From Thermodesulfobacteriota bacterium (GTDB lineage Bacteria > Desulfobacterota > Desulfarculia > JACQYL01): a DNA stretch of 64,000 nt. The notes below the pieces were generated by a model. The model made no database searches. It was not told the origin of the DNA and was given only the letters and a program-made list of their open reading frames with translations. Every line of letters begins with the position of its first letter. Positions within the stretch are counted from its first letter, which is position 1. Location of the stretch: positions 3,552,001 through 3,616,000 of the forward strand of contig CAXXLZ010000002.1 of NCBI GenBank assembly GCA_963675595.2, given 5' to 3'. Of this stretch, positions 30,373 through 47,216 are shown in pieces. Both the position numbers and the translations under genes were made by a program.

Positions 30373-30472
30373 GCCGGAGCCTTTTCCATGGGGCAATATT
30401 CGGTGAGCGATATGCCGAATCCTGGTGAAGTGGTGTGAGACACAATCTCAATCGGAAGGAGCCGTGAAGCAG

Positions 30473-33400
30473 ATGAGGAAAGAAAAGCTTGCCGCCCGGG
30501 CGGCCCTGGTTGGAATCGTCTTTCTCTTCCTTTCGCTCATCGGATTGAAGGTTGAATCTTTCGCTCAGCCTCTCGATTCCGCCGGGAGTAAGCAGGCTGC
30601 AAAGATTGTCGACTACGAATCGGGGAATGGAGACTGGTACGGGGGCATATGGAAGAACACGGCATCGTCTCCGGAGTTGTCCGTGAACCTGTACATTCAG
30701 ACCTATTACACCGACTCCACGGTTGTGGTGTACACTCCCGACGCGAGAGTCTTCCACGCTTTCCTGTCCGAGACCTCCGACTCCGTCATTGAAGCCGATT
30801 CCATGGACCCCGGCAACTCCATGAGCATGCGCATCGATTTTCTCACCGAGGACGCGGGAACCCTCCTGTTGACGGACAACGCTCAGAATCCTCCCTCCTC
30901 CATACAGGTGGATATCGAACGGGTTTTTCAGGCCGTTCGGACGGCCCACTCCGGAATATGGAAAGACGCGACCAATACGTTCAACATGTACGTTCAGGAC
31001 TACGAAACCGGGTCCACCGTTGTTGTGTACACTTTTGACGGTTCGGTTTTTCGGGCTTTCCTCTCCGACACGGATGCAGACGTGTTCTCCTGCTTCGATT
31101 TGGGGGACGGGACCGAAGAGATGACCATGACGTTCACGGGATGGGACGAAGGAACCGTTATGGTGCAGCCTTCTCCGGACCTGTCGCATCCCGCGGCAAC
31201 CGACGGTTTCACGTACGACGTGGGCAAACGCTTTCCTCCCGCCCATATGGACGTGGACTTCGAGGGCGCTCCCAGGGCGGGTACGGCGCCTCTCCAAGTC
31301 GTGTTTTCCGATACTTCAACACTGGACAACAACCAATGGTCGTGGGATTTCGGAGACGATGATTCGAGCGGCGAGCAAGGCCCGACGCATGTATACACCG
31401 AACCCGGCAAGTACACCGTTCGTCTGACCACAAGCGACGGCTCCGCTGAAACGACGACCACAAGAACGGATTACATCGAGGTCTTTTCCTCCACGGACCC
31501 GGTGGTTTCCGGAACCGTCCGTGAATCGTATGCAAACACGGGCCTGAAGAACGTTGCGGTGACTCTGGGCGGTTCGGGCGTCGCTACAACGGATGCCACA
31601 GGCTATTACGCCGCGCAGGTGCCCACCGGCTGGAGCGGCATCTTGGGGCCTTCGTTGAGCGGTTGGGTATTCACGCCCCGGAACATGACCCTGGGCAATG
31701 TGACCTCGGACCAGTCGAGCCAGGATTTCCTCGGTTCCTACATGCCGCCTTACATGGTGAACATTTCCGGAAAGGTCGATTTCGGCGGAGTCGGTCTCGG
31801 TCTCGTGCAGCTTGATTTCAGCGGCGTGGGGACGTGTTTCACGGATTCGTCGGGCAATTACTCCTATGATGTTCCCGATCAGTGGAGCGGAACGGTCACG
31901 CCTTCCATGAGCGGCTATTTCTTCAGCCCGGCCTCGAGGAGCTACGTCAATTTGGCCGCGGATCAGACAAATCAGGACTTCGGCTCCTTTGTATCTCCGC
32001 CCCCCATGATCACGGTGGAAGGTACCATCAAGACGGACGGAGGTACGCCCTTACTCGGGGTGGTCGTCAACTATGCCGGAACGGGCGGAGCCGGGTCCGC
32101 CGGCGTCGATATCCAAGGCAAATACTCCTTTCAGGTGCTTTCCGGCTGGAGTGGAACCGCCACGCCGTCTCTCAGCGGCTATACCTTCAGTCCCGCATCC
32201 AGGACATACACCGGTCAGACCACCGATGTGACCAACCACGACTACACGGCATACGTGCAAACCGTGACCATTTCAGGCTCCGTTACTTTCGGGGGCGCGG
32301 GGCTGGGCTCGGTGACAATGACCGTAAGCGACGTGGGAACCGTTTCGACCGACGCATCCGGTTCCTATAATGCGGATGTTCCCATCGGGTGGACCGGAAC
32401 GGTCACTCCTTCTCTGGTCGGTTATTTCTTTATGCCGGCATCGAAAAGCTACACTTCCGTGGCTTCCTCCCAAACAAACCAGGATTTCAGCGCGTTTGCG
32501 GCCCCGCCTCCCATGATTACCGTGTCCGGAACGATCCTTGAAACGGGAACGGGAAACCCGGTGAACGGAGTCGACATCGACTACAGCGGAGTAGGGGGCG
32601 CGGGAACGGCCGTAACGGATCCTCAAGGGGAATACTCATTCCAGGTTCTATCCGGATGGAGCGGAACCGCCACGCCTTCCCATTCGAGATATTCCTTCTA
32701 TCCGCCGACAAGGATGTACAACAAGGAAACCACCGATCAATCGAACCATGATTACTTGGCGACGCCCACCATCGTGAGCATCGTGGGGGAGATCACCACA
32801 AGCACGGGGACGCCCATTCCCGGAGTGAACGTGAACTACGGCGGCGACGGCATCACCGGCGTCGTGGCCACCGGGGGCGTGGGGCAATACTCCTTCGACG
32901 TTCCTTACGGCTGGAGCGGTACGGCCACACCCTCGTACGGCAGCTACTCCTTTTCCCCGACTTCCAGGTCCTATACGTCCGTGCCGTCCGATCAATTCAA
33001 TCAGAACTACACGGGAACCCAGTCGCTTCCCCAGACCGTGTCCGTATCGGGTACCATTACTTATTTCGGAGACTACCTCGGCGGCGTCGCGGTAGCCTTC
33101 AGCGGCGTCGGACAGACTACGACGGATGCGTTCGGGCATTTCGTCATGGAAGTTCCCTACCTGTGGAGCGGCACGGCGACACCGTCCCTCGAAGGCTACA
33201 CTTTTTCGCCGGAGTACATGGACTTTGCCAATGTGTCGGCGGACCTCCAGGGGCAAAACTTCACGGCGTCTCAAGCCGAGCCTCAGAGCGTAGTCCTTTC
33301 CGGAATCATAACAGGTCCGGAAGTGGGCGCACCCGCTCCGAACATAACCGTATCCTTTTCGGGGCAGGGGTCCGTAATAACGGATGAGGATGGGTACTAC

Positions 33401-33544
33401 CAAAAAGAAGTGCCCGCGTCTTGGAGCGGTTCCGTCACTCCTTCCTATTCGGGATATGGATTCGATCCTCCTTCGTATGAATTCGACGTCGTATCTTCGG
33501 ACCAATGGGGCCTTGACTTTTCGGCCTATCTGGATTGGTTCTGA
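30473..33544 (+). CDS. Secreted paralogue: two GxW domains + PKD domain + eight ~85-aa beta-sandwich repeats
   Basis: Signal peptide; GIWKN/GIWKD domains; WSWDFGD...HVYTEPGKYTV PKD; eight repeats of the same consensus as the upstream gene. Confidence 0.82.
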   Translation: MRKEKLAARAALVGIVFLFLSLIGLKVESFAQPLDSAGSKQAAKIVDYESGNGDWYGGIWKNTASSPELSVNLYIQTYYTDSTVVVYTPDARVFHAFLSETSDSVIEADSMDPGNSMSMRIDFLTEDAGTLLLTDNAQNPPSSIQVDIERVFQAVRTAHSGIWKDATNTFNMYVQDYETGSTVVVYTFDGSVFRAFLSDTDADVFSCFDLGDGTEEMTMTFTGWDEGTVMVQPSPDLSHPAATDGFTYDVGKRFPPAHMDVDFEGAPRAGTAPLQVVFSDTSTLDNNQWSWDFGDDDSSGEQGPTHVYTEPGKYTVRLTTSDGSAETTTTRTDYIEVFSSTDPVVSGTVRESYANTGLKNVAVTLGGSGVATTDATGYYAAQVPTGWSGILGPSLSGWVFTPRNMTLGNVTSDQSSQDFLGSYMPPYMVNISGKVDFGGVGLGLVQLDFSGVGTCFTDSSGNYSYDVPDQWSGTVTPSMSGYFFSPASRSYVNLAADQTNQDFGSFVSPPPMITVEGTIKTDGGTPLLGVVVNYAGTGGAGSAGVDIQGKYSFQVLSGWSGTATPSLSGYTFSPASRTYTGQTTDVTNHDYTAYVQTVTISGSVTFGGAGLGSVTMTVSDVGTVSTDASGSYNADVPIGWTGTVTPSLVGYFFMPASKSYTSVASSQTNQDFSAFAAPPPMITVSGTILETGTGNPVNGVDIDYSGVGGAGTAVTDPQGEYSFQVLSGWSGTATPSHSRYSFYPPTRMYNKETTDQSNHDYLATPTIVSIVGEITTSTGTPIPGVNVNYGGDGITGVVATGGVGQYSFDVPYGWSGTATPSYGSYSFSPTSRSYTSVPSDQFNQNYTGTQSLPQTVSVSGTITYFGDYLGGVAVAFSGVGQTTTDAFGHFVMEVPYLWSGTATPSLEGYTFSPEYMDFANVSADLQGQNFTASQAEPQSVVLSGIITGPEVGAPAPNITVSFSGQGSVITDEDGYYQKEVPASWSGSVTPSYSGYGFDPPSYEFDVVSSDQWGLDFSAYLDWF

Positions 33545-33565
33545 TCGCGTTTTTCCTTCCTGAGG

Positions 33566-33598
33566 CGCAGCCCGGGTGAGACCCGCACCCGGGCCGCG
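33566..33598. repeat. GC-rich inverted repeat after the second secreted-protein gene
   Basis: GCCCGGGTG-AGACCCG-CACCCGGGC stem-loop; no U-tract. Confidence 0.5.
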
Positions 33599-33701
33599 TG
33601 CGGGATTGATTCATTCGCGACCTGAGATCATTCCGCATCGGCTTCGGACGAATCCGGTCGTAACTCCTTCTTCTGGGGACGTCTCTCCCGCAACATAGTT
33701 C

Positions 33702-33729
33702 TTGACAATTCCGAAGGCAGGAATATACT
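33702..33729 (+). promoter_or_regulatory. Sigma70 promoter of the yceD-rpmF-plsX operon
   Basis: TTGACA-N16-TATACT, 41 nt upstream of the yceD ATG. Confidence 0.7.
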
Positions 33730-33770
33730 CAAACTTTTTATCCTCATCGATGTTTCCTGTTGAGGACGGA

Positions 33771-34289
33771 ATGATCATACAGACCGCCAACTTCCCGGAT
33801 GAAGGGCTTGAATTCGACATTGACGAGCCGTCCGATTGGGGAGGTCGAGGTTTTGCCCACGGCCCCGTGAGGGGGCGCGTCCGCGTAGATCGTTCCGGAG
33901 ATTACTTCATGATCCGCGGGGAGGTCCGGACCTCGGTACCCGTTTGTTGCGTGCGGTGCCTTGCGGATTGCCTTGCCGAAGTCAACGCCGACATTTACGC
34001 CGTGCTTGTTTCCGCCGCCCTGATGAAGGCGGCGACACACGATAACTTGGAGTTGACCGCCGAAGATCTGGATGTTGTTACTTACGAAGACGATGAATTT
34101 GATACCGATCCGATCATTGAAGACCAGATATTGCTCTCAATTCCCGAGAATCCTCTTTGCTCGGATGAATGTGCCGGTCTTTGCCCGAAATGCGGCGTCA
34201 ACCGGAACTTGACGCAATGCGAATGCGGACCCGATGAAACAAGCGGCTCTTTCGGCGTGCTGGCCGGTTTTCGGCCGATGAAGTCCTGA
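33771..34289 (+). CDS. yceD: YceD/DUF177 family protein
   Basis: [21 protein letters not shown]...CEC; directly upstream of rpmF. Confidence 0.9.
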
Positions 34290-34323
34290 GAGTATCGGGA
34301 TCAAACAGATTTGGAGATTCCCC

Positions 34324-34500
34324 ATGGCCGTACCCAAACGAAGAAAATCGAAATCGAAGAAGAACATGCGGCGTTCGCATGATCACTTGAGCGCACCCGG
34401 AATTTCCTTGTGCGCCCAATGTGCCGAACCGAAGCTCCCCCACCGCGCGTGTCCCAGTTGTGGGAACTACCGCGGAAGGACTTTCATCGAGACGGAGTAG
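34324..34500 (+). CDS. rpmF: 50S ribosomal protein L32 (not in the ORF track)
   Basis: [58 protein letters not shown]. Confidence 0.96.
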
Positions 34501-34549
34501 AATTGCAGACGGTTTCCCGCCCGTTTTTCCGCCCGTTCGATGAAAACCG

Positions 34550-35608
34550 GTGAGTCTCACCATGAATCGGGCTGAGTTCCGCATCGCCGTCGACGCGATG
34601 GGAGGCGATTTCGCCCCCGCGGCCCCGGTTGAGGGAGCTGTGTGGGCTGCTCGGGATTTTGGTCAGCCCGTCATCCTCGTCGGCCGACAAAAAGTGGTGG
34701 AAGCCGAGCTGAAGGCCCTCCAAGGGGTTCCCTCTTCCCTGATCGAGATTCACGACGCTCCCGAAGTGGTTGAAATGGACGAGCCTGCCGCCGCGGCGTT
34801 CAAGAAGAAGAAAGGCGCCTCGATCCGGGTGGCCTTCGACTTGGTGAAGCAGGGAAAGGCGCAAGGGGTTGTCAGCGCGGGTAACTCCGGCGCCATCATG
34901 GCGGCGGCCGCATTGGTGTTGGGGCGCACCAAGGGAGTCGACCGCCCGGCCATCGCAGGCATCCTACCGACACTCGAGGGACCCACCGTGCTCATAGACG
35001 TGGGTGCCAACGTGAACTGCAAACCCCACAACCTCTTTCAATTCGGAATGATGGGTGATATCTACGCCCGGAGTATTCTCCAGTTGAAAGACCCCGCGGT
35101 CGCCCTGTTGAGTGTGGGGGAAGAAAGCATCAAAGGCAACGATCTCGTCAAGCGGGTTCACGAGTTACTGCGGAACGCGGACATCAATTTTGTAGGTAAT
35201 GTGGAAGGCAGGGACATTTTCACGGGCAAAACCCAAGTAATTATCTGTGACGGCTTCGTCGGCAATGTCTGCCTCAAATTGGCCGAAGGCATCGGCCAAG
35301 CCTTCGGGCGGATGGTCAAAAAAGAAGTGCGGAAAGGCATCCTGAGCAGTATGGGATTCCTCTTCGCCCGAGGAGCGTTCAATAGAATCGGTTCGAGAAT
35401 GGATTATGCGGAACACGGCGGTGCTCCGCTATTGGGTGTGAACGGCGCCTGCGTGGTATGCCACGGAGCCTCCTCCTCCAAGGCCGTCAAGAACGCCGTC
35501 CGGGTCGCTTCGGAACTGATTCGGAATCGAGTCAACGAGCATTTGACCCGAGGTTTGCAACTCTTCGCTGAAAAGCACCCCGAGGGGACGGCTGAACGGA
35601 GCCGGTAA
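34550..35608 (+). CDS. plsX: Phosphate acyltransferase PlsX
   Basis: IAVDAMGGDFAP, SAGNSGA, RPAIA, DVGAN, GEESIKG, CDGFVGNVCLK, GGAPLLG, HGAS. Confidence 0.96.
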   Translation: MSLTMNRAEFRIAVDAMGGDFAPAAPVEGAVWAARDFGQPVILVGRQKVVEAELKALQGVPSSLIEIHDAPEVVEMDEPAAAAFKKKKGASIRVAFDLVKQGKAQGVVSAGNSGAIMAAAALVLGRTKGVDRPAIAGILPTLEGPTVLIDVGANVNCKPHNLFQFGMMGDIYARSILQLKDPAVALLSVGEESIKGNDLVKRVHELLRNADINFVGNVEGRDIFTGKTQVIICDGFVGNVCLKLAEGIGQAFGRMVKKEVRKGILSSMGFLFARGAFNRIGSRMDYAEHGGAPLLGVNGACVVCHGASSSKAVKNAVRVASELIRNRVNEHLTRGLQLFAEKHPEGTAERSR

Positions 35609-35621
35609 TTAGGAGCGCCTC

Positions 35622-36779
35622 ATGGACTATTTCCTGACGGAAGAACAGTTGACCATACGGGACTTGGCGAGGCAGATCGCCGAGTCTAGAATCGTGCCTT
35701 CCCGCGCCGAACTGGACGAGAAGAGCGAATTTCCTCATGAGATCATGAAGGACTTGGCGCAATCGGATCTTTTCGGAATCACCATTCCTGAGGAGTTCGG
35801 CGGTCTGGGGCTGGGATGCATGGAGAACTGCGTGGCCGTTGAGGAAATCAGCCGCGGCTGCTGCGGAGTGGCCACCACTTTCGCCGCGAGCGGACTTGGG
35901 GCCTACCCGATTATTCTGCACGGAAGCGAGGAGCAGAAGAAGAAATACCTGCCGCGTATCGCCTCAGGCGAGTCGTTGGCCGCTTTCGCTCTGACTGAAT
36001 CCACCGCCGGCAGCGACGCGGGCGGTATTATGACGACCGCCGTTCTCGATGGCGATGAATACGTGCTCAACGGTTCGAAGCAGTGGATTACCAACGGAGG
36101 CGAGGCCGACATCTATTCCGTTTTCGTGGTGACGGACAAAGCCAAAGGAGCCCGCGGGGCCACCGCCCTGATCGTGGAAAAGAGCGATCCCGGATTCAGT
36201 TTCGGCAAGAAGGAAGACAAAATGGGAATCCGGGCTTCCGTGACCCGGGAACTCATTTTTGATAACTGTCGTATCCCCAAAGACCGTATTATCCGCAAGC
36301 AGGGAGCCGGTTTCCTCGTTGCCATGAAGACCTTCGATCATTCGCGGCCGGGCGTGGGAGCCCAAGCGGTGGGCGTGGCTCAGGCGGCCCTCGACGAAGC
36401 CGTGAAGTACGCCAAGACTCGAGTTCAGTTCGAGGTTCCCATCATCAGTTTTCAGGCGGTACAACATATGCTGGCGGATATGGCCACGTCCGTTGAAGCC
36501 GCGCGTGCTCTGGTATACTGTGTGGCCAGAAGCATGGATGCCGGTGCGGGCGACACTTCGAAGGTCAGCGCCATGGCCAAGCTGTTTCCCACGGAAATGG
36601 CGATGAAGGTGACCACGGATGCGGTTCAGATACTGGGCGGTTGCGGCTACATGAGAGAGTATCCCGTGGAAAAAATGATGCGGGATGCCAAGATTCTCCA
36701 GATTTACGAAGGAACCAATCAGATTCAGCGGAACGTCATTGGACAAGCACTGAACAAGGAATACACCCGCAAGGGTTAG
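35622..36779 (+). CDS. Acyl-CoA dehydrogenase (short-chain/Bcd-like)
   Basis: PEEFGGLG, FALTE..AGSD, NGSKQWITNG, KMGIRAS, RVQF, QILGG.GY, RDAKILQIYEGTNQIQR (catalytic Glu in the SCAD position). Confidence 0.93.
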   Translation: MDYFLTEEQLTIRDLARQIAESRIVPSRAELDEKSEFPHEIMKDLAQSDLFGITIPEEFGGLGLGCMENCVAVEEISRGCCGVATTFAASGLGAYPIILHGSEEQKKKYLPRIASGESLAAFALTESTAGSDAGGIMTTAVLDGDEYVLNGSKQWITNGGEADIYSVFVVTDKAKGARGATALIVEKSDPGFSFGKKEDKMGIRASVTRELIFDNCRIPKDRIIRKQGAGFLVAMKTFDHSRPGVGAQAVGVAQAALDEAVKYAKTRVQFEVPIISFQAVQHMLADMATSVEAARALVYCVARSMDAGAGDTSKVSAMAKLFPTEMAMKVTTDAVQILGGCGYMREYPVEKMMRDAKILQIYEGTNQIQRNVIGQALNKEYTRKG

Positions 36780-36789
36780 GTCGCTTCTC

Positions 36790-37584
36790 ATGAATCTAGT
36801 CGTCTGCGTCAAACAGGTTCCCGACGCCAAAAATATTCGCATCGACCCGGTGACGAACACTCTTCAGCGGCAAGGAGTGGAAAGCATCGTCAATCCGTTT
36901 GATTTGTACGCCCTTGAGGCGGGACTTCGTCTGCGGGATGAATTCGGGGGCAAACTGACCGTGATCTCCATGGGGCCGCCTCAAGCCGAGAGCGTCCTCA
37001 GGGAAGCCCTCTCCTACGGGGCCGATGAGGCGGTACTGCTCAGCGACCGTGCTTTCGCCGGAGCCGATACATTGGCGACCGCCAAGACCCTGGCCGCGTG
37101 TGTGCGTCGATTAAGCCCCTTCGATTTAGTGATCTGCGGAAAGCAGGCCGTCGACGGGGACACGGCCCAGGTCGGTCCCGCCCTGGCTCAATCCCTCGAT
37201 ATCCCTCATGTGGCCTTTGTCGGAACCATGGAAGGCGTTGAAGCGGGTTGCCTCACGGTGCAACGTATGATGGACGACGGTTATGACACGGTCGCCGTGG
37301 AACTGCCCGCTCTGATCACCGTGGTCAAAGAAATCGGAGAGCCCAGGGTTCCTTCCTTCAAAGGGAAGATGCGGGCCAAGAAGCAGCCGGTGCCCGTTTG
37401 GGGCCTCAAAGAACTGGACCTTGCGGAAGACCAAGTGGGGCTCAAAGGCTCAGCCACGTGGGTTGAACGCATCTTTGCTCCCGAGCCGCGAGGAAGACGG
37501 GAAATCCTTGACGGCGACCCGGATACACAGGCGGCGAATCTCCTGAAGCGCCTGAAAGAGGACCAGGTCGTCAAACTCGCCTGA
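36790..37584 (+). CDS. etfB: Electron transfer flavoprotein beta subunit
   Basis: VCVKQVPD, NPFD, SMGP, FAGADTLATA, GKQAVDGDTAQVG. Confidence 0.94.
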   Translation: MNLVVCVKQVPDAKNIRIDPVTNTLQRQGVESIVNPFDLYALEAGLRLRDEFGGKLTVISMGPPQAESVLREALSYGADEAVLLSDRAFAGADTLATAKTLAACVRRLSPFDLVICGKQAVDGDTAQVGPALAQSLDIPHVAFVGTMEGVEAGCLTVQRMMDDGYDTVAVELPALITVVKEIGEPRVPSFKGKMRAKKQPVPVWGLKELDLAEDQVGLKGSATWVERIFAPEPRGRREILDGDPDTQAANLLKRLKEDQVVKLA

Positions 37585-37728
37585 CCGGACTTTTCGCCCG
37601 TCTTGACCCCGGAATCGCTTGTTTGGAAGGAGCGCGGGATGCTTGACACCGGATTTTCGGGCATGTAATAGAGCGACCTTGACTTTTCCGCTCGGAGCGA
37701 GAACACCAAGAAACCAAGCGCTGAAACG

Positions 37729-38922
37729 ATGAGTATCGGCATAGATCGTGACAAATGCACGGCGTGTGGCGCCTGTGTGGATGCCTGCCCCTTCGGGGTC
37801 ATGGAAATCGTCGGTGAGACGGCCGTCGTAGGGGACGGCTGTACGCTGTGCGGGGCCTGTGAAGAGGCCTGTGCCTTCGAGGCGATCACCATTGTCCGCA
37901 AGACGGGCTCGAGTGAGGCTGCGGCGGCTTATCAAGGCGTGTGGGTGTTCGCCGAGTACAGAGGCGGCAATATCGCGGGGGTCGCCTTCGAGCTTTTGGG
38001 CGAAGGGCGGAAGCTTGCCGAAAAACTGGGGCAGGAACTGAGCGCCGTGATTCTGGGCGGCTGCCTTGACGGTGCGGCGGAGGAACTTGTCGCCCACGGC
38101 GCCGACCGGGTTTTCGTATTCGACCATCCCGACCTTCTTCATTTCCAGGAAGCTACCTACAGCCGGACCATCGCCGGACTCGTCCGTGAACGAAAGCCCG
38201 CCGTCTTGTTGCTGGGGGCGACGGCCATCGGCCGATCTCTCGCTCCGGGAATCGCGGCTTTGCTGGACACCGGTCTCACCGCGGACTGCACGGAGCTGGA
38301 CATTCGTCCGGAAGATCAGGCGCTGCTTCAGACCCGCCCCGCTTTCGGCGGGAACATCATGGCGACCATCGTTTGTGCGGACCGGAGACCGCAGATGGCC
38401 ACGGTGAGGCCCAAGGTGATGAAACGGGCTTCAAGAATCGAAGGTCACCGGGGCGAAATCATTTCCATGGATTTGCCGTCTGAAGCCGTCGACCGGCGCA
38501 TCCGCGTTCTCGGCACGGTGGCGCAACAAGGCGATCTGGTGAATTTGGCCGAGGCGGACGTGATTGTGGCCGGCGGCAGGGGGATTCAGGAGGAAAAGAA
38601 TTTCGCCTTGCTCAAGGAGTTGGCGGACCTCCTCAACGGTTGTGTGGCCGCCACGCGAGGTGCGGTGGACGCGGGTTGGATCGATTATGCTCATCAGGTG
38701 GGTCAGACCGGCCGAACGGTGAGCCCCAAGTTGTATATTGCCTGCGGCGTTTCAGGCGCGGTCCAACATTTGGTGGGTATGCAGTCTTCCGACGTCATCG
38801 TGGCGATCAACAAGGATCCGGAAGCGCCTATATTCAGCGTGGCCGACTACGGCATTGTGGGCGATCTTTTCGAAATCGTGCCCAAACTCATCCAGCAAAT
38901 AAAGAACTCCTTGGGACAATAA
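37729..38922 (+). CDS. etfA: Electron transfer flavoprotein alpha subunit with an N-terminal 2x[4Fe-4S] ferredoxin domain
   Basis: CTACGACVDACP and CTLCGACEEAC, then GLTADCT, TRPAFGGN, QMATVRP, GGRG, QVGQTG, GVSGAVQHLVGM, AINKD. Confidence 0.93.
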   Translation: MSIGIDRDKCTACGACVDACPFGVMEIVGETAVVGDGCTLCGACEEACAFEAITIVRKTGSSEAAAAYQGVWVFAEYRGGNIAGVAFELLGEGRKLAEKLGQELSAVILGGCLDGAAEELVAHGADRVFVFDHPDLLHFQEATYSRTIAGLVRERKPAVLLLGATAIGRSLAPGIAALLDTGLTADCTELDIRPEDQALLQTRPAFGGNIMATIVCADRRPQMATVRPKVMKRASRIEGHRGEIISMDLPSEAVDRRIRVLGTVAQQGDLVNLAEADVIVAGGRGIQEEKNFALLKELADLLNGCVAATRGAVDAGWIDYAHQVGQTGRTVSPKLYIACGVSGAVQHLVGMQSSDVIVAINKDPEAPIFSVADYGIVGDLFEIVPKLIQQIKNSLGQ

Positions 38923-38962
38923 GTCTTCCCGGTTCCCAATTACCCGCACAGGAGAACATGTC

Positions 38963-39706
38963 TTGGAAGCCACGAATCGAGTTATGCTGATCACGGGGGG
39001 CTCTCGAGGGATCGGCCGCGCCGTCGCCCTGAAATTGGCCCGTCCCGGGGACATTTTGTTGCTCAATCATTATGATAAGGACGACGAGGCGGCTCGAGCC
39101 ACCGCCGCCGAGATCGAACAGCTTGGAGCCTCGGCCCGACTCTATTATTTTAACGTGGGCGACTTCGCGGAAGTCGAACGGTTTGTGGGTGAGATGGTCG
39201 CGGAATTCGGCGGCATCCACGTTCTGGTCAACAATGCGGGTATCACCATGGATGCCATGTTCATTCGGATGAAAGAGGAACAATGGGACCGGGTGATCGA
39301 TGTGAATCTCAAAGGCGTATTCAATTGCACCCAGGCGGTCAGCCGTGCCATGATCAAGCAGAGACACGGGAAGATCGTGAGCATTTCCTCCGTGGTGGGC
39401 GCCATTGGAAATGTCGGGCAGGCGAACTACTCGGCCTCCAAAGCCGGGATCATGGGCTTCACGAAATCCGTGGCGAAGGAACTCGCGTCGCGAAATGTCA
39501 ATGTCAACGCAGTGGCTCCCGGATTCATAGACACCGAGATGACGGCGGTGATCCCTGATAAGATCAAAGAAGGCTTTCTTCGCAACGTTCCGATGAACCG
39601 CATGGGAACGCCGGAGGAAGTGGCCGAGGTGGTGGAGTTTCTGTGTTCGGATCGGGCTCGTTACGTTACAGGCCAGATCATTCATGTCAACGGGGGCATG
39701 TACTGA
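38963..39706 (+). CDS. fabG: 3-oxoacyl-ACP reductase FabG
   Basis: TGGSRGIG, NNAGIT, GN.GQANYSASK, APGFIDTEMT, VNGGM; upstream of acpP. Confidence 0.94.
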   Translation: MEATNRVMLITGGSRGIGRAVALKLARPGDILLLNHYDKDDEAARATAAEIEQLGASARLYYFNVGDFAEVERFVGEMVAEFGGIHVLVNNAGITMDAMFIRMKEEQWDRVIDVNLKGVFNCTQAVSRAMIKQRHGKIVSISSVVGAIGNVGQANYSASKAGIMGFTKSVAKELASRNVNVNAVAPGFIDTEMTAVIPDKIKEGFLRNVPMNRMGTPEEVAEVVEFLCSDRARYVTGQIIHVNGGMY

Positions 39707-39813
39707 TCCGTCTCTTGGAGACGAGTCGGACCGCACCTTGAATTAGTTTGAGCCGAATCGGACACCATCTTGTCCGGGAATTGGATAAACAACATCATTG
39801 GGGGGGAAAAATA

Positions 39814-40050
39814 ATGGCGTCTTACGCGGAAAAAGTTAAGCAGATCATCAGTGATCAGCTGGGAGTGGACCTTGCGGACGTTGTCGAGGAAGCGTCCTTC
39901 GTAGACGACCTGGGTGCCGACTCTCTGGACCTGGTCGAACTGATCATGGCCATGGAAGAGGCTTTCAACGTGGAAATCGCCGATGAGGAGGCTGAGACGA
40001 TTCGAACGGTGAAAGACGCGGTCAGTTATATAGAAAATCACCATCCATAA
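39814..40050 (+). CDS. acpP: Acyl carrier protein
   Basis: [21 protein letters not shown] phosphopantetheine site; start ATG 39814. Confidence 0.96.
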
Positions 40051-40067
40051 GAAAAGGACGAACACTG

Positions 40068-41309
40068 GTGTCCAGAAGAGTCGTCATCACGGGCTATGGC
40101 GTGGTTACCCCTCTAGGAAACAACACCGAGGATACTTGGCGTAATCTGATTGCGGGAAACAGCGGCGTCGGCCAAATCACCCTTTTCGAGACCAAAGGGT
40201 TCCGGACCACCATCGGGGCGGAGGTGAAAAACTTCAATCCCGATGATTATCTGGATAAGAAATCCGTCCGCCGTCTTGACCGCTTCATCCATCTCGCCAT
40301 AGCGGCTTCGGACATGGCCGTAACGGATGCGGGGCTGGACATGTCCGAGGTGAACCCCGAAAGGGTCGGGACGTACGTGGGAACCGGACTGGGAGGGTTG
40401 AATTCGATCGAGCATTACCACGCCGTGCTGAAAGAGGCGGGACCGAACAAGATCAATCCTTTCTTCATTCCCATGCTTATCGGTAACATGGCGCCGGGAC
40501 AGATTTCCATCCGGCACGGAACCAAAGGCCCCAACCTGTGCGTTTCCACGGCATGCGCCGCCGGCTCCCATGCCGTGGGTGAATCCTTGAAGCTCATTCA
40601 GGCGGGCATGGCCGACGTGATGATCTGCGGCGGCAGCGAAGCGGTGATTACCCCTTTGGGGCTCGGCGGGTTCTGCGCCATGCGGGCGCTGTCCGAACGG
40701 AACGATGCGCCCGAAAAGGCTTCCCGGCCGTTCGAGAAGAACCGCGACGGGTTCATCATGGGGGAAGGCAGCGGAATCGTGGTGATCGAAACCCTGGACC
40801 ATGCCAAGGCTCGGGGAGCCAAGATTCGGGCCGAGCTCATCGGGTACGGTCTGTCGAGTGATGCCTACCATATGACCGCTCCCGCCCCGGGAGGGACCGG
40901 CGCGGCCCGTTGCATGGAAATGGCTTTAAAGACCGCGGGAATCCGACCGGAAGAAGTGGACTACATCAACGCGCACGGCACTTCCACGGACCTCAACGAC
41001 GTTTCCGAATACCAGGCCATTCGGACGGTTTTCGGTGATCACACGGATCGAATGCCCGTGAGTTCCACCAAATCCATGACCGGCCATCTGTTGGGAGCCG
41101 CCGGAGGGGTGGAGTCCGTTGTCTCCGTGCTCGTAATGGAGCGAGAAATCATCCCGCCGACGATCAATTACGAGGAGCCGGATCCGGAGATTTCGCTGGA
41201 TGTGGTGCCCAATGAAGCCAGGACCGCAACCGTCGACGTAGTCATGAGCAACTCCTTCGGATTTGGAGGCACCAACGCCAGCTTGATCTTTAAGCGTTGG
41301 GCCGAATAG
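40068..41309 (+). CDS. fabF: Beta-ketoacyl-ACP synthase II
   Basis: TACAAG, INAHGTST, KSMTGHLLGAAG, SNSFGFGGTNA. Confidence 0.96.
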   Translation: MSRRVVITGYGVVTPLGNNTEDTWRNLIAGNSGVGQITLFETKGFRTTIGAEVKNFNPDDYLDKKSVRRLDRFIHLAIAASDMAVTDAGLDMSEVNPERVGTYVGTGLGGLNSIEHYHAVLKEAGPNKINPFFIPMLIGNMAPGQISIRHGTKGPNLCVSTACAAGSHAVGESLKLIQAGMADVMICGGSEAVITPLGLGGFCAMRALSERNDAPEKASRPFEKNRDGFIMGEGSGIVVIETLDHAKARGAKIRAELIGYGLSSDAYHMTAPAPGGTGAARCMEMALKTAGIRPEEVDYINAHGTSTDLNDVSEYQAIRTVFGDHTDRMPVSSTKSMTGHLLGAAGGVESVVSVLVMEREIIPPTINYEEPDPEISLDVVPNEARTATVDVVMSNSFGFGGTNASLIFKRWAE

Positions 41310-41398
41310 TGTCGCAGTCACCGTCTGCGTAGAGTGCCCCTCCTGCGGGAATAGAATCCGCCAAGAGATGGGGGCGAACGGAAAGAAGCTCCAAAGTC

Positions 41399-42643
41399 AT
41401 GAAACATCTTAGACAGACCGATCCCGAAGTCGCCGAAGCCATTGAATTGGAAATCCGGCGGCAAAGCGAAAAGCTGGTCCTCATCGCGTCCGAGAACTAC
41501 GTCAGTCCCGCCGTGGCCGAAGCACTGGGTTCCGTGCTGACCAACAAGTATGCCGAAGGATATCCGGGCCACCGGTACTACGGAGGATGCGAGCACGTCG
41601 ATCAGGTGGAGACCCTGGCCATCGAAAGGCTCAAGAGCCTTTTCGGCGCGGATCACGCCAATGTCCAGCCTCACGCCGGTTCCCAGGCGAACATGGGGGT
41701 TTACTTTTCCGTACTGAAGCAGGGTGACACCATACTGGGGATGGACCTCTCCCACGGAGGGCATTTGACCCACGGGAGTCCCGTCAATTTCTCGGGTCGG
41801 CTGTTCAATACGGTGTTTTACGGCGTGGATCGCAACTCGTTCACCATCGACATGGACCAGGTGGAGTCCCAGGCCAAGACGCATCGCCCGGCTTTGATCA
41901 TTGCCGGAGGTAGTTCCTATCCCAGGCTGATCGATTTCGAGGGCTTTTCCCGAATCGCTCGAGAGGTGGGAGCCGTGTTCATGGTGGACATGGCTCATTT
42001 CGCGGGACTCGTAGCCGGAGGAGTCTTTCCGTCTCCCGTGCCCCATGCGGATTTCGTGACCTCGACCACGCATAAAACCCTCAGGGGCCCCCGTGGAGGC
42101 TTCATCCTGTCCACCGGAGAATATGCCAAGAAACTGGACCGATACCTCTTTCCGGGCATGCAGGGCGGTCCTCTGATGCATGTCATCGCCGCCAAAGCGG
42201 TGGCATTCAAAGAGGCTCTGCAACCGGAATTCAGCGATTATGCGCGGCAGATCGTGACCAATGCCCAAGTGATGGCGGCTCGGCTTTCCGAGCGCGGCAT
42301 CGATGTCGTGTCCGGGGGCACCGACTGCCACCTGATGTTGGTGGACCTTTCCAACGTGAACTTGACGGGAGCCAAAGCCGAAGAGGTATTGGATGAGGCG
42401 GGCATCACTCTGAACAAGAACGTCATTCCGTTTGAAAAGAGGAGTCCCAACGAAACAAGCGGCATACGGATCGGTACGCCGGCGGTCACCACGAGGGGAA
42501 TGAAGGAAGGCGAAATGCGTTGGATCGCGGACAGAATCGTGGACGTGCTGTCTAATCCCGATGATCAGGCCCTGGTGGATCGGACACGGGAAGAGGTCAG
42601 GCACCTGTGCGAGAAATTCCCGGTTTTCGGGACGGGAGATTGA
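41399..42643 (+). CDS. glyA: Serine hydroxymethyltransferase
   Basis: [39 protein letters not shown]. Confidence 0.97.
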
Positions 42644-42798
42644 TACCGGACGTTATCTGAACGCCCCCTCCTTCAGGCTCGGCAGCTTCCGAAAAGTCCT
42701 TCGGCGTTCCCGCCGAAGGCGGACCCCCTCCTCGGAGCCGGTTCTACGTTAGGTCCAAGCAATGAAATCTCTGTCCTTATTGATGGAGAATCCCCGAC

Positions 42799-43290
42799 GT
42801 GAAATGTCCATTTTGCGGTTCTCTCGAAAACAAAGTGATCGACTCCAGGCTCAGCAAGGAAGGAGCCGCCATACGTCGTAGGCGTGATTGCACGGAGTGC
42901 GGACGCCGGTTCACCACTTATGAGCGGGTGGAAGAAATCCTCCCCATGGTGATCAAGAAAGACAATCGTCGGGAGCCGTACAACAGGGAAAAGGTCCACG
43001 AAGGGATCAAGAAGGCATTGCAGAAAAGGCCGGTCAGCGTGGATGCCGTCATGGCCTTTCTGGACGATCTGGAACGGAGCTTTCAGGAAAGTCAGAAAAA
43101 GGAAATCCCCAGTAAGGAGATCGGCGAAAGAGTGATCCAGCAGCTCAAGGAATGGGACGAGGTGGCCTATGTACGCTTCGCCTCGGTGTACCGGCAGTTC
43201 TCAGACACTGCGGAATTCATGTCCGAGCTGGAGCAACTCATTCTGGATCGTAAGAAGAAAGCCGAGGAGCGTGAGCCGGAAGACGGATGA
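42799..43290 (+). CDS. nrdR: Transcriptional repressor NrdR
   Basis: MKCPFC, VIDSR, RRRRDCTECGRRFTTYER, ATP cone, VAYVRFASVY. Confidence 0.96.
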   Translation: MKCPFCGSLENKVIDSRLSKEGAAIRRRRDCTECGRRFTTYERVEEILPMVIKKDNRREPYNREKVHEGIKKALQKRPVSVDAVMAFLDDLERSFQESQKKEIPSKEIGERVIQQLKEWDEVAYVRFASVYRQFSDTAEFMSELEQLILDRKKKAEEREPEDG

Positions 43291-44368
43291 AGCGTATATG
43301 GCGATGGCTCTTCGCCTGGCCATGAAGGGCTGGGGCCGCACTTCGCCCAACCCCTTGGTCGGAGCCGTTGTGGTGCGCGACGATCAGGTGGTGGGGAAAG
43401 GGTTTCATCCCAAGGCCGGGGAACCCCACGCCGAGAGGATCGCTCTGGAACGAGCCGGCTCTCAAGCACGGGGAGGGACGCTTTACGTTACGCTTGAGCC
43501 GTGTAATCATTACGGTCGGACGCCTCCTTGCACGGAGGCCGTGCTGGCGAGTGGGGTACGCCGGGTAGTCATCGGGCAGACCGACCCCAATCCGGAAGTG
43601 GCGGGCGGAGGCGCTCAACGGCTTCGGGAGGCGGGTATCCAGGTGGAGATCGGCGTCCTGGAAGCACGCTGTCGGCGCCTCAACGAAGCCTTCAATTTCT
43701 TTGTGACCCGGAAACGACCGTTTATCGCCCTCAAGCTGGCTGCGACACTGGACGGAAAGACCGCCACCAAGACGGGGGACTCCCGTTGGATCACCAACGA
43801 ACGTTCCCGAAACTTCGTTCATCGTCTTCGGGGCGGCATGGACTCAATCATGGTGGGCATGGGTACGGTTCGCGCCGACGACCCACAGCTGACCTGCCGA
43901 TGGAAAAATGGCCGCGATCCTTTGCGTGTGGTGGTGGACGGCTCTCTTTCCTTGACCCCGGACCGGAAGATATTCAATCCCGATTCCGAGGCGGGGCTGT
44001 TGGTTTTCACGGGAGTTGCGGCGGATCCCGAAAAGGCGGCCGTGCTGGAAGCCTCGGGAGCCGAGGTTGTCCGTGTCGAAATCGAAAACGGATTTGTGGA
44101 CCTGAAGGCCGTCTTCTCGACGCTGGCCGAGCGTCGCATTCTCTCCGTGCTCATCGAAGGAGGGGGGACGCTGGCGGCGTCGGCGCTTAGGGCCGGGTTG
44201 GTGGATCGCCTTTATTTTTTTTACGCGCCGAAAATCATCGGGGGCAACGGAGCTCCGGGAATGATCGGGGATCTGGGGATCGAGACCATGGCCGAGTGCC
44301 TTCGAATCAAAGATACGAGACTACGTCGGTTCGGAGAAGACTTCATGGTGGAAGTGTCCATCTCCTAA
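43271..44368 (+). CDS. ribD: Riboflavin biosynthesis deaminase/reductase RibD
   Basis: PNPLVGAV, HAE, TLEPCNHYGRTPPC, DGKTAT, DDPQLT, IEGGG; probable GTG start at 43271. Confidence 0.95.
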   Translation: MSRKTDEAYMAMALRLAMKGWGRTSPNPLVGAVVVRDDQVVGKGFHPKAGEPHAERIALERAGSQARGGTLYVTLEPCNHYGRTPPCTEAVLASGVRRVVIGQTDPNPEVAGGGAQRLREAGIQVEIGVLEARCRRLNEAFNFFVTRKRPFIALKLAATLDGKTATKTGDSRWITNERSRNFVHRLRGGMDSIMVGMGTVRADDPQLTCRWKNGRDPLRVVVDGSLSLTPDRKIFNPDSEAGLLVFTGVAADPEKAAVLEASGAEVVRVEIENGFVDLKAVFSTLAERRILSVLIEGGGTLAASALRAGLVDRLYFFYAPKIIGGNGAPGMIGDLGIETMAECLRIKDTRLRRFGEDFMVEVSIS

Positions 44369-44440
44369 CCGGTTCGCAGAAATCGCAATATCGTTTCCGG
44401 ACGCATATTGGGATTTACTCTAACGAGAGGTGCCTCGTTC

Positions 44441-45097
44441 ATGTTTACGGGACTGGTGGAAAGACTGGGAAAGACCCACCGGATCGTGCACAAGGGTGGC
44501 GAAGCCGTACTCGTCCTGGCGGCGGAGTTTCCCGAATCCGTCATTATCGGGGAAAGTATTGCCGTAAACGGGGTTTGCCTGACGGTGACGGGAAGCAGCT
44601 CGGGCGTCCATGAATTCGACGTGTCCGAGGAAACGCTGAAGCGGAGCAATCTGGGCTTCCTGAAGCCGGGAGATCCCGTGAACCTGGAACGGGCCCTCAG
44701 GCTGAACGATCGGTTGGGAGGCCACTTGGTGACCGGTCATATTGACGCCGTGGGGCGGATCCTGATAAAAAAGCGAAGCCTGAGTTCGGTGATCATGAGG
44801 GTGGGAGTTCCCTCGGAGGTTTCTCGCTATCTGGTGCCCAAAGGTTCCGTGGGCGTGGACGGCATCAGTCTTACCGTGAACCGGACCGGGGAAGATTTTT
44901 TTGAAGTTAACCTGATTCCTCACACGGTCGAGGTCACCACCCTCAAGATTCGTGACGAGGGAGATTCGGTAAATATTGAGACGGATCTCATCGGGAAGTA
45001 TGTAGACCGAATGCTGCAGCCGCATTCCGCAGGCGGAGACGGCGAATCCCGAAAAGGCCTGACCCTTGACGCTTTGTCACGTCACGGGTTTCTATGA
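44441..45097 (+). CDS. ribE: Riboflavin synthase (alpha chain)
   Basis: [46 protein letters not shown]. Confidence 0.95.
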
Positions 45098-45217
45098 TCT
45101 CTCGTATTCGGTGGGAGCCCGTCGTTTATTTTTAGAGCCTGAAATTCGGTTCGGTAAGCCGTCCCTGCCGCATCCCTGAACATGGGGGCGCGTCTTGCCC
45201 GACCAGCAGAGGTTTCG

Positions 45218-46417: not shown

Positions 46418-46506
46418 CGCGGACCAGGGGGACGGAGCGTTCTCCTTCCGAATGCGCAGGGAACCCTGCTGCATTTAACAGGTCGTTGAGAAGCCGGAAT
46501 ATTGCC

Positions 46507-46625: not shown

Positions 46626-46645
46626 CGTAAAGCGGAGGGTATGCT

Positions 46646-47110: not shown

Positions 47111-47216
47111 AATCGTCGCCTTTGCGCCGCGGCAACGGGGCGACGCCCGAAGCCGCGGAGTGCGTTCATCCGCCGCCGGTTAAAAAAGCGGCAACCTCCC
47201 CGGGAATACGACCTCC

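Follow-up and report, generated by a model that had tools for sequence, protein, structure and literature searches.

An acyl-CoA dehydrogenase-fold protein and a bifurcating-type ETF encoded in a fatty-acid synthesis operon: a candidate enoyl-ACP reductase of FAS II

The window (the whole stretch of DNA analysed, 64,000 nucleotides) contains a fatty-acid synthesis operon in which a gene for an acyl-CoA dehydrogenase (ACAD)-fold flavoprotein is followed by genes for both subunits of an ETF. From sequence comparison, this ACAD and EtfAB probably constitute the enoyl-ACP reductase of FAS II in the source bacterium and in many anaerobes, and the reductase is probably driven by NADH with reduction of ferredoxin as well. 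A preliminary description had proposed that the ACAD and ETF serve anabolism as an ETF-coupled reductase of enoyl thioesters in FAS II, and that is the proposal comparative genomics best supports. Among the roles it had offered, that of enoyl-ACP reductase is favoured because the ACAD is kept in the fab operon across phyla, because known reductases were not found in 30 of 58 genomes carrying it, because FabK holds its slot in non-carriers, and because it is often the sole ACAD-like gene of its genome and some carriers lack beta-oxidation. As the ACAD and ETF genes stand in the place of the relatives' enoyl reductase, the last step of fatty-acid elongation is their probable role. If this is true, that step is performed in many anaerobic bacteria in a way not yet described; a literature search found no published description of an ACAD-ETF enoyl reductase in a fab operon.

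Layout of the operon

Open reading frames and family profiles confirmed the gene order yceD-rpmF-plsX-ACAD-etfB-etfA-fabG-acpP-fabF, all on the forward strand. The longest yceD reading frame (33702-34289; PF02620 YceD, 83 bits, ORF residues 72-190) is followed by rpmF (ribosomal protein L32, 34324-34500; PF01783, TIGR01031) and plsX (phosphate acyltransferase, 34550-35608; TIGR00182, 361 bits, cut-off 243). The ACAD (35622-36779; Acyl-CoA_dh_N, _M and _1 domains), proposed to be the catalytic subunit, begins after a gap of 13 nt, and etfB (36790-37584) after a further 10 nt. Downstream of etfA (37729-38922) a 40-nt gap leads to fabG (3-oxoacyl-ACP reductase, 38963-39706; TIGR01830, 337 bits, cut-off 298), acpP (acyl carrier protein, 39814-40050; NF002148, 116 bits), with Ser37 within the invariant DSLD motif, and fabF (beta-ketoacyl-ACP synthase II, 40068-41309; TIGR03150, 648 bits, cut-off 494). 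The near-consensus promoter previously placed at 33702 was recovered as a putative sigma-70-like site (TTGACA-16-TATACT, 33702-33729, forward strand) matching 11 of 12 consensus positions, a consensus match only, and the true start of yceD is probably downstream of it. The consensus scan found 7 promoter-like sites in the region, compared with 3.3 ± 2.0 in shuffled sequences.

Two points were missing from the preliminary description, namely a fabD gene inside the window and a 144-nt spacer between etfB and etfA (37585-37728, forward strand). The spacer contains a conserved promoter-like block, TTGACA (37643-37648), 17 nt, TAATAG (37666-37671), which lay outside what the consensus scan scored. 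In three genera (G000, G001 and G002) TTGACACCG and ATGTAA.AG are invariant and the flanks are variable; an Rfam search of the spacer gave no match. The presence of this internal block before etfA is counted against the enoyl reductase reading.

Searches bore out the absence of fabH, fabI, fabK, fabV and fabZ from the window. The preliminary description put the ACAD and ETF in the fabH-fabD slot, but fabH is elsewhere in the genome (G000:C2:4371834-4372805), fabD (malonyl-CoA:ACP transacylase; TIGR00128, 304 bits, cut-off 261; PF00698) is displaced to 11055-12074 on the reverse strand, and one or the other adjoins the ACAD in the same operon of other carriers. The ACAD has thus been added to the operon and has not taken the place of either gene. 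Supply of short acyl-CoA primers in place of FabH-dependent initiation, also suggested, was rejected; with fabH present, and in several carriers immediately next to the ACAD, initiation is not replaced.

The ACAD and the ETF subunits

The best NCBIfam match of the ACAD was AcrC, at 459 bits below the cut-off of 640. It is about 52% identical to the Bcd of C. difficile (5ol2_C, 402 bits), retaining the Glu of IYEGT, and scores 312 bits with CarC. These nearest characterised ACADs (Bcd, AcrC and CarC) run reductively (PMC5861303). Short CoA thioesters are the substrates of all its characterised close relatives, and no ACP-binding signature was found among the clade-specific residues. MbtN, RedW and PigA show that the ACAD fold can act on thioesters of ACP or PCP, but the models of these carrier-protein enzymes gave 57, 269 and 237 bits with the window ACAD (cut-offs 700, 650 and 500), and they are natural-product-pathway dehydrogenases without a dedicated bifurcating ETF. 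An ACAD tree, suggested in the preliminary description as a check, placed the fab-operon orthologue in a clade of its own, apart from 8 paralogues of the source genome (SH-aLRT 99%).

EtfB matched CarD, LctB and the EtfB subunits of 4kpu, 5ol2 and 7koe at 204-243 bits, compared with 91-95 bits for non-bifurcating ETFs. EtfA has an N-terminal 2x[4Fe-4S] ferredoxin domain (Fer4, residues 3-60) preceding the ETF and ETF_alpha domains, and aligns with CarE (6fah_A) from end to end, ferredoxin domain included (residues 1-392, 424 bits). For both subunits, the five best relatives of known structure all come from bifurcating complexes, and by sequence the ETF belongs to the electron-bifurcating type of CarDE and Bcd-EtfAB.

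The module resembles Bcd-EtfAB of clostridia and Acidaminococcus (5ol2, 4l1f, 4kpu) in combining an ACAD-fold subunit with a two-subunit bifurcating-type ETF, and its ETF subunits score 213-298 bits with those of 5ol2 and 4kpu. Physiologically, Bcd-EtfAB is reductive (2 NADH + crotonyl-CoA + 2 Fd(ox) giving butyryl-CoA + 2 Fd(red); PMC5861303). Unlike Bcd, the window ACAD belongs to a separate orthologue clade and is encoded in FAS II operons, not with thiolase, hbd and crotonase genes; some genomes with a member of the clade have no CoA-level pathway for butyrate or beta-oxidation, and EtfA carries the extra ferredoxin domain. Among solved structures, CarCDE of Acetobacterium woodii (6fah; CarD 243 and CarE 424 bits) is the nearest to both ETF subunits, and it shares the gene order in which the ACAD is followed by the small and then the large subunit of the ETF. 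CarC-CarED contains 3 FAD and 2 [4Fe-4S] (Table 1 of PMC5861303). The window differs from CarCDE in its catalytic subunit, which is nearer to Bcd than to CarC, and in its gene context, which is lipid synthesis and not phenylacrylate respiration.

Occurrence of the ACAD and of known enoyl reductases

The arrangement is not unique to the source genome. An orthologue with 72-83% identity was found in 14 of 20 relatives (next paralogues about 50%), and the gene order is the same in all 14. No other gene of the operon is as well conserved (plsX 48-70%, fabF 55-74%). In one relative, G003, the orthologue reads as two pieces, which is counted against the enoyl reductase reading. A sample of 121 genomes from the phylum comprised 58 carriers, with 57-75% identity and a single copy in each, and 63 non-carriers. 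In 45 of the 58 the ACAD lies 2.4-8.4 kb from the housekeeping fabF; operon maps added 4, giving at least 49 with fab linkage, 3 unlinked and 6 others unassigned. Among the best 80 loci from all prokaryote species, 52 were fab-linked and 28 were not. The linked copies occur in several gene orders, such as fabD-fabG-acpP-fabF-ACAD, and also under several other phylum labels. This arrangement is far beyond chance. Twelve orthologue loci outside fab operons had housekeeping genes as neighbours, with no thiolase, crotonase or 3-hydroxyacyl-CoA dehydrogenase gene beside any of them, so that these unlinked copies do not look catabolic either. Adjacent etfBA genes were missing at 17 fab-linked loci, also counted against the enoyl reductase reading; ETF genes were present elsewhere in all six of the phylum genomes checked that lack them beside the ACAD. 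Carriers include genomes without beta-oxidation, genomes of 1.5-2.5 Mb with very few oxidoreductases and, at a first look, many small genomes with only one or two ACAD-like candidates.

In the source genome fabH, fabD and fabZ are present outside the operon, and searches for FabI, FabK, FabL and FabV found none. The 18 SDRs included no qualifying match to FabI or FabL (E. coli FabI reached only 25-27% identity), no FabK or NMO/FabX-family gene was detected, and FabV was not found in a search that had no positive control, which is counted as a weakness. The expectation that carriers would lack a known reductase held in part. In 30 of the 58, five of them closed genomes, there was no match to FabI, FabI-like, FabL or FabK-like proteins, and the other 28 have another candidate (1 true FabI, 4 true FabL, 5 other FabI-like and 22 FabK-like, overlapping), which means that in some carriers the ACAD need not be the sole option. 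A similar expectation for fabH failed, as that gene occurs in the source genome and beside the ACAD in several carriers. The five closed genomes contain 1, 4, 1, 1 and 2 SDRs. In two scanned single-SDR genomes (G049 and G121) FabG is the sole SDR; a third such genome, G087, gave no match to E. coli FabI and none to FabL in searches with these two; and for none of the 4 further SDRs of G058 and G123 was FabI or FabL best-scoring.

True FabI was found in 16 genomes of the sample, only one a carrier. The 5 FabK matches above the curated cut-off are all in non-carriers, and no FabK-like gene of any carrier is near fabF. Strong FabK genes (372-502 bits) of non-carriers were checked at eight loci, and at all eight fabK occupies the ACAD slot, in the order yceD-rpmF-plsX-(fabH)-[fabK]-fabD-fabG-acpP. 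Like the ACAD, FabK (enoyl-ACP reductase II, FMN) is a flavoprotein, and it is an enoyl reductase. Its fold is unrelated (an NMO-type TIM barrel), and it is a single subunit using NADH directly, with no ETF or ferredoxin link. FabI or FabK-like matches were absent from 17 of the 63 non-carriers. In family f3, which belongs to the same class as the window, the 5 genomes checked have the operon yceD-rpmF-fabG-acpP-fabF and no recognised reductase; in four further phylum genomes without one, the fab operon is canonical or nearly so. On this evidence the phylum must contain a reductase that is not yet recognised, and the source genome could contain one too.

Proposed reaction and alternative explanations

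In a mechanism modelled on Bcd-EtfAB and CarCDE, the bifurcating FAD in EtfB would be reduced by NADH. Of the two electrons, one would pass through the FAD of EtfA to that of the ACAD, where trans-2-enoyl-ACP would be converted to acyl-ACP, and the second, of low potential, would go to ferredoxin, perhaps via the pair of [4Fe-4S] clusters in the N-terminal domain of EtfA. The proposed substrate, unlike that of Bcd, is enoyl-ACP of all chain lengths. That it is ACP-bound rather than CoA-bound appears somewhat the likelier case, and coupled reduction of ferredoxin has about an even chance of being correct.

An ordinary CoA-level enzyme of the Bcd-EtfAB type, such as a reductase of crotonyl-CoA or another short enoyl-CoA, providing primers or redox balance and merely co-located with fab genes, seems most improbable. 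Its closest characterised proteins, AcrC and Bcd, are indeed CoA-dependent, no ACP-specific feature was found and 28 of the best 80 loci are unlinked, but fab linkage survives several rearrangements and phylum labels, none of the 12 unlinked loci has thiolase, crotonase or hbd beside it, and fabH is available, adjoining the ACAD in several carriers. Moreover, the five closed carriers have no real match to 3-hydroxyacyl-CoA dehydrogenase (best 24.5 bits, partial), and hence no CoA-level route supplying enoyl-CoA. Also improbable is an acyl-ACP dehydrogenase making the double bond for oxygen-independent unsaturation, with some other unrecognised enzyme as reductase. Dehydrogenation is the native ACAD reaction, and the source genome, in which E. 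coli FabA matches only FabZ (30% identity) and an NMO/FabX-family gene is likewise absent, has no defined route to unsaturated acids. The 17 non-carriers imply another reductase in the phylum, and FabX of Helicobacter pylori sets a precedent for an enzyme of the dehydrogenase type within core fatty-acid synthesis: it is a flavoenzyme with an Fe-S cluster which dehydrogenates, by backtracking, and isomerises ACP-bound chains in FAS II (PMC8626469). FabX, however, has the NMO fold, no ETF, and works in the oxidative direction. Against such a dehydrogenase, 30 carriers, five of them closed, would be left without any reductase, what fills the slot in non-carriers is a reductase (FabK above or near the curated cut-off), the ETF belongs to a bifurcating, NADH-oxidising class that accompanies reductive enzymes, and the operon showed no partner isomerase.

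At two of 113 orthologue loci (L093, where it scores 195.6 bits, and L124) an NMO/FabK-like gene accompanies ACAD-etfBA in one fab operon. Because both NMO proteins have a C-terminal CX2CX3CX4C cluster, missing from the in-slot FabK, they are better FabX-like candidates than the ACAD, although the spacing differs from that of the FabX cysteines (300, 304, 308 and 320). The same two operons favour a second reductase that is auxiliary or conditional, or another lipid redox role, with the main reductase from an unrecognised family, as do the complete fab operons without a recognised reductase in the 17 non-carriers and f3, and the 28 carriers with another candidate. Many bacteria keep two enoyl reductases. 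We nevertheless consider an auxiliary role unlikely, as the ACAD is single-copy and better conserved than any other gene of the operon, persists in genomes of 1.5-2.5 Mb that encode very few oxidoreductases, and alternates with FabK in one slot.

The fab operon of the window and its ACAD and ETF proteins

The acyl-CoA-dehydrogenase-fold gene (ACAD, 35622-36779) and the adjoining ETF genes etfB (36790-37584) and etfA (37729-38922) lie within a fatty-acid synthesis (fab) operon on the plus strand. They are preceded by yceD (33702-34289), rpmF (34324-34500) and plsX (34550-35608), and followed by fabG (38963-39706), acpP (39814-40050) and fabF (40068-41309). The intergenic gaps of 13, 10 and 40 nt reported in the preliminary description were confirmed from the ORF coordinates, and the promoter match that it placed upstream of the operon was found at 33702-33729, agreeing with the consensus at 11 of 12 positions. 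The etfB-etfA spacer (37585-37728) is 144 nt long and contains a promoter-like block, TTGACA, 17 nt and TAATAG, at 37643-37671. When the spacer was compared with its equivalents at two other loci (L039 and L040), the block TTGACACCG ... ATGTAA.AG was invariant across the three genera and its flanks were variable. In sequence the block looks like an internal promoter, so that etfA-fabG-acpP-fabF may be transcribed separately as well. A terminator scan of the operon region gave 10 sites, against 10.9 expected from shuffled sequence, none of them intergenic on the plus strand, and an Rfam search of 33300-41500 gave no match.

Downstream of the operon (41399-47834) are glyA and then a riboflavin operon (ribD, riboflavin synthase, ribBA, ribH and nusB); this glyA/ribD context is seen repeatedly within the phylum, both in carriers, ie genomes with a single-copy orthologue of the window ACAD, and in non-carriers. 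Directly upstream, at 28126-33544, is a tandem pair of large genes (748 and 1039 aa) whose products contain PKD and CarboxypepD_reg domains. The fabD gene of the window is outside the operon, at 11055-12074 on the minus strand, and is followed on that strand by the two genes of a 2-oxoacid:ferredoxin oxidoreductase (alpha subunit 9693-10772, beta subunit 8944-9696), a pairing which might be a source of branched or short acyl-CoA primers.

The window ACAD has the three domains of the acyl-CoA dehydrogenase superfamily, N-terminal helical (PF02771, 131.7 bits), middle beta (PF02770, 93 bits) and C-terminal helical (PF00441, 183.8 bits), and shares about 52% identity with Bcd from the Bcd-EtfAB complex of C. 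difficile. Its C-terminal IYEGTNQIQ aligns with IYEGTSEVQ of that Bcd with the Glu of the motif kept; this residue, E363, is invariant in 29 orthologues and we take it to be the catalytic base. The best NCBIfam model was the clostridial acryloyl-CoA reductase AcrC (NF042972), at 459.1 bits against a cut-off of 640, ie the protein is not a member of that family. There are 10 ACAD matches at E <= 1e-60 in the own genome, and ordinary ACADs are therefore present too.

EtfB is similar to CarD overall, aligning over residues 1-260, and its five closest relatives of solved structure are CarD and LctB, together with the small subunits of 4kpu, 5ol2 and 7koe (204-243 bits, against 91-95 bits for non-bifurcating ETFs). 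EtfA gave 293-424 bits with bifurcating ETFs and at most 180 bits with non-bifurcating ones. CarE, a subunit of the caffeyl-CoA reductase complex, gave the highest of these scores, and residues 1-392 of EtfA align to it, ferredoxin domain included. The N-terminal domain of EtfA contains two [4Fe-4S] motifs, with Fer4 families at residues 3-60 and the alignment to CarE starting at residue 1, so that it has the same fusion as CarE, the large subunit of CarCDE with its N-terminal 2x[4Fe-4S] domain. By its sequence, the ETF of the window is of the electron-bifurcating (group 2) kind. The ferredoxin domain is absent from some operon copies, those of the carrier genomes G123 and G089 aligning only from residue 66. 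According to the available part of a 2018 review of bifurcation (PMC5861303), Bcd-EtfAB catalyses 2 NADH + crotonyl-CoA + 2 Fd(ox) -> butyryl-CoA + 2 Fd(red), with E0' values of -10 mV for crotonyl-CoA, -320 mV for NADH and -420 mV for ferredoxin, and CarC-CarED contains 3 FAD and 2 [4Fe-4S].

Orthologues of the ACAD and their linkage to fab operons

An orthologue of the ACAD was found in 14 of 20 relatives, with 72-83% identity, the next paralogues being about 50% identical. It is the most conserved gene of the operon, since in the same 14 relatives the identities are 48-70% for plsX, 53-74% for fabG and 55-74% for fabF. In the phylum sample (121 genomes, spread evenly over the phylum; threshold E <= 1e-140) exactly one orthologue was present in each of 58 genomes, at 57-75% identity; at a first look, many small genomes of the sample had 1-2 ACAD-like candidates in all. 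When every prokaryote species was scanned through a single genome, at least 586 relatives were found. The tree proposed in the preliminary description was built from 114 orthologues and 8 paralogues of the own genome (quick IQ-TREE search, LG+G4), and it places the orthologues in a single clade with 99% SH-aLRT. The fab-linked ACADs are spread over nearly all of its subclades, and 16 of the 20 copies standing alone fall in one Nitrospirota subclade that is itself nested among fab-linked copies.

A search across genomes for ACAD-etf genes flanked by plsX and fabG, also proposed earlier, established that the arrangement is not unique to this genome; the order yceD-(rpmF)-plsX-ACAD-etfB-etfA-fabG-acpP-fabF is kept in all 14 relatives with an orthologue. 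In the phylum sample the ACAD is 2.4-8.4 kb from the housekeeping fabF in 45 of the 58 carriers, as judged by coordinates, and linked in 4 more by operon maps. ACAD-etfBA is away from the fab operon in 3 closed carrier genomes, all of one family, and 6 of the 58 carriers were unassignable owing to contig breaks. Among the best 80 of the at least 586 relatives (65-75% identical), 52 are fab-linked, although some of these 80 loci are truncated at contig ends and may have been assigned wrongly; their labels are Thermodesulfobacteriota/'delta proteobacteria', Nitrospirota, Omnitrophota, Margulisiibacteriota, Saganbacteria, Edwardsiibacteriota, Ratteibacteria and one Actinomycetota MAG. The gene orders seen in carriers are plsX-ACAD-etfBA-(fabD)-fabG, plsX-fabH-ACAD-etfBA-fabG, plsX-ACAD-fabD-fabG with no etf, and fabD-fabG-acpP-fabF-ACAD. 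No etfBA adjoins the ACAD at 17 fab-linked loci, and ETF genes were present elsewhere in all 6 such phylum genomes checked. An EtfA match was found in 95 of the 121 genomes, so that co-occurrence with ETF is uninformative. In one relative (G003; locus L052, G003:C1:1890000-1904000, two contigs) the ACAD is split near residue 208 and fabG near residue 190, which may be due to sequencing or assembly error or to decay of the operon.

The earlier suggestion that the module serves anabolism is supported by the loci lacking fab linkage. At 12 such orthologue loci the neighbours are housekeeping genes (dapF, pmbA, kdsBACD, dxs, proC and others), and genes for thiolase, crotonase or 3-hydroxyacyl-CoA dehydrogenase adjoin the ACAD at none of them. 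Moreover, no real 3-hydroxyacyl-CoA dehydrogenase was found in the five closed carrier genomes, where the best PF02737 match was partial, at 24.5 bits. The ACAD-ETF module is not catabolic.

Enoyl reductases in this genome and across the phylum

Among the steps by which bacteria make fatty acids, that of the enoyl reductase varies most, and the enzyme is a drug target; many anaerobe genomes show none of its known isozymes. In the own genome (6.79 Mb in 3 contigs, 98% complete) fabH stands alone beside trpS, and fabZ is in an lpxD-fabZ-lpxA-lpxI-lpxB cluster. FabK was not found, the highest score with TIGR03151 in the whole genome being 24.9 bits where the cut-off is 453. PF13561 identified 18 SDRs, and the FabI model was absent from the best 25 NCBIfam families of the 16 scanned, the other two being the operon FabG and a weak match of 27.8 bits. 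The best SDR reached 208 bits with the FabL model (cut-off 328), and E. coli FabI was matched at 25-27% identity at best. FabV (PF12241) had no match in the own genome, 21 relatives or the 121 phylum genomes, a weak negative because the control genomes were equally silent. The ACAD-ETF module is itself not an SDR and so lies outside the FabI/FabL family. A second KAS I/II gene (G000:C2:3940655-3941866) encodes a protein 41% identical to E. coli FabB, the value for the operon FabF being 39%. A secondary lipid cluster (L150, G000:C2:3374000-3392000), which resembles clusters of the aryl-polyene type, comprises two KS, a FabZ-like and a FabG-like protein, a FabL-like SDR, an ABC exporter and two acyltransferases similar to LpxL. 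The FabL-like SDR (L150:11174-12025:-), at 178 bits against the cut-off of 328, was not treated as the housekeeping reductase, although it might conceivably have that role.

Across the phylum sample, in raw tallies over related genomes that are uncorrected for kinship, true FabI (38-53% identity) was found in 1/58 carriers and 15/63 non-carriers, other FabI-like proteins (30-34% identity) in 5/58 and 3/63, FabK-family proteins at E <= 1e-40 in 22/58 and 34/63, and FabK over the curated cut-off in 0/58 and 5/63. FabL exceeded its cut-off in 4/58 carriers and 0/63 non-carriers, the control for this model having matched in B. subtilis only. Neither FabI, FabI-like, FabL nor FabK-like proteins were found in 30/58 carriers and 17/63 non-carriers. 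The five closed carrier genomes contain 1, 4, 1, 1 and 2 SDRs. The sole SDR is FabG in G049 and G121 (360 and 354 bits), G087, which also has a single SDR, matched neither E. coli FabI nor the FabL model, and none of the four other SDRs scanned, in G058 and G123, was best as FabI or FabL.

Twelve loci with strong FabK matches were compared. In all 8 of the non-carrier loci with 372-502 bits, fabK is in the operon, in the order yceD-rpmF-plsX-(fabH)-fabK-fabD-fabG-acpP-(fabF)-glyA-ribD, and its position is that of ACAD(-etfBA) in carriers. The other 4 are away from fab genes, 2 in carriers (345-378 bits) and 2 in non-carriers (one of these on a contig of 5.9 kb). Comparison of coordinates placed no FabK-like gene of a phylum-sample carrier near fabF. 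This slot of a conserved operon is thus occupied by FabK, by ACAD(-EtfBA), or is empty, the pattern expected of non-orthologous displacement of one function. FabK-like genes of 223-275 bits do occur in 11 of the 14 carriers among the close relatives. The 8 such loci examined are outside fab operons, adjoining DctM/Usp/DHDPS or enoyl-CoA hydratase genes; these genes were set aside as the main reductase and are kept as a caveat. At three loci (L064, L067 and L068, in G017, G014 and G019) a FabK-like protein of the FabK/FabX fold family (NMO) is paired with an enoyl-CoA hydratase/isomerase outside the fab operon, an arrangement reminiscent of fabM-fabK.

Proposed function of the ACAD-ETF module

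Three roles had been proposed for the module. The first, as enoyl-ACP reductase of FAS II, explains these data best and is probably that of the ACAD together with EtfAB. Support for this function comes from genomic context, ie operon order, linkage and the FabK slot; from context and the type of ETF we infer an ACP-bound substrate and the reduction of ferredoxin. No ACP-specific feature of the ACAD was found with family models or among clade-specific residues. The residues A46, A88, Q154, W155, G160, Y165, K197, M344 and K351 are clade-specific (conserved to 95% or more among 114 orthologues, and common to at most 1 of 8 paralogues), and judged without coordinates they contain no interpretable basic patch that could be an ACP-binding signature; the median net charge is -4. 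A predicted complex of 2 ACAD with AcpP had a score of 0.01 and a mark of 0.32, which counts neither for nor against binding. The second proposed role, supply of primers in place of FabH, fails, as fabH is present in the own genome and adjoins the ACAD in G058, G123, G089, G095, G054 and the locus L093. The third, dehydrogenation of acyl-ACP for unsaturation, may be a rival or an added role, no FabA and no FabX-family gene having been found in the own genome; however, it leaves the missing reductase unsupplied.

The ACAD-ETF finding is real, widespread and beyond known annotation. No description of an ACAD or ETF as a core FAS II component was found in the full-text literature searched, which included few subscription journals. 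To our knowledge, flavin-based electron bifurcation is known so far from catabolic and respiratory reactions. In their available text, neither the bifurcation review (PMC5861303) nor a survey in which the reported Bf-Bcd are all from Firmicutes, Fusobacteria and Bacteroidetes (PMC6085437) contains 'acyl carrier' or 'enoyl-ACP', nor, respectively, 'fatty acid synthesis' and 'fatty acid'. The available part of a D. vulgaris fitness study gives DVU2064 as the likely essential fatty-acid enzyme and leaves ACADs unmentioned (PMC10102598). ACAD-EtfAB is best classed with the Bcd/CarC-EtfAB enzymes, as one recruited to FAS II. We put forward more tentatively that it may represent a further class of FAS II enoyl-ACP reductase in many anaerobes, ACAD-fold and fed by a bifurcating EtfAB, with 2 NADH giving reduced ferredoxin per elongation, beside the known structural classes FabI/FabL, FabK and FabV. 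The carriers concerned are about half of the phylum sample together with Nitrospirota, Omnitrophota, Margulisiibacteriota and other candidate-phylum lineages. If this is true, every two-carbon elongation step in many strict anaerobes oxidises 2 NADH and yields reduced ferredoxin, a core anabolic pathway is coupled to flavin-based electron bifurcation, and membrane-lipid synthesis would be a source of low-potential electrons for energy conservation or CO2 fixation. The lack of a known isozyme would be accounted for in a large group of ecological importance, among them sulfate reducers, relatives of cable bacteria, Thermodesulfovibrionia and a number of candidate phyla. A new estimate would also be required of what lipid synthesis costs when energy is limiting, and lipid hydrogen-isotope signatures may be affected. 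Such genes are at present annotated as generic acyl-CoA dehydrogenases and ETFs, and models therefore infer beta-oxidation where it is absent.

Some results count against the ACAD with EtfAB as the reductase. Family f3 belongs to the same class as the window and has no ACAD; its fab operon, seen in five genomes (L153-L157), is yceD-rpmF-fabG-acpP-fabF, without plsX, ACAD or etfBA, and no FabI or FabV was found in it, FabK-like matches being weak and in 2/6 genomes. Four of the 17 non-carriers in which no reductase was recognised (L178-L181) keep canonical or near-canonical fab operons, and some reductase of the phylum therefore escapes the searches used. Five carriers of other phyla yielded no true FabI (best 1.5e-19) and FabK-family matches of no more than 97-195 bits. 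In two of them, L093 (11167-12147, plus strand) and L124 (about 11197-12144), an NMO gene directly follows acpP in the same operon as ACAD-etfBA. The L093 protein gave 195.6 bits with TIGR03151 and is 36% identical to in-slot FabK, and the L124 protein is 46% identical to that of L093. Both have a C-terminal CX2CX3CX4C cluster which is absent from in-slot FabK. In FabX of H. pylori, too, there are C-terminal cysteines (300, 304, 308 and 320), belonging to a [4Fe-4S] subdomain that replaces the NAD(P)H motif (PMC8626469). Given the cluster and this likeness, the NMO of L093 and L124 may be a FabX-like Fe-S flavoenzyme rather than a second reductase.
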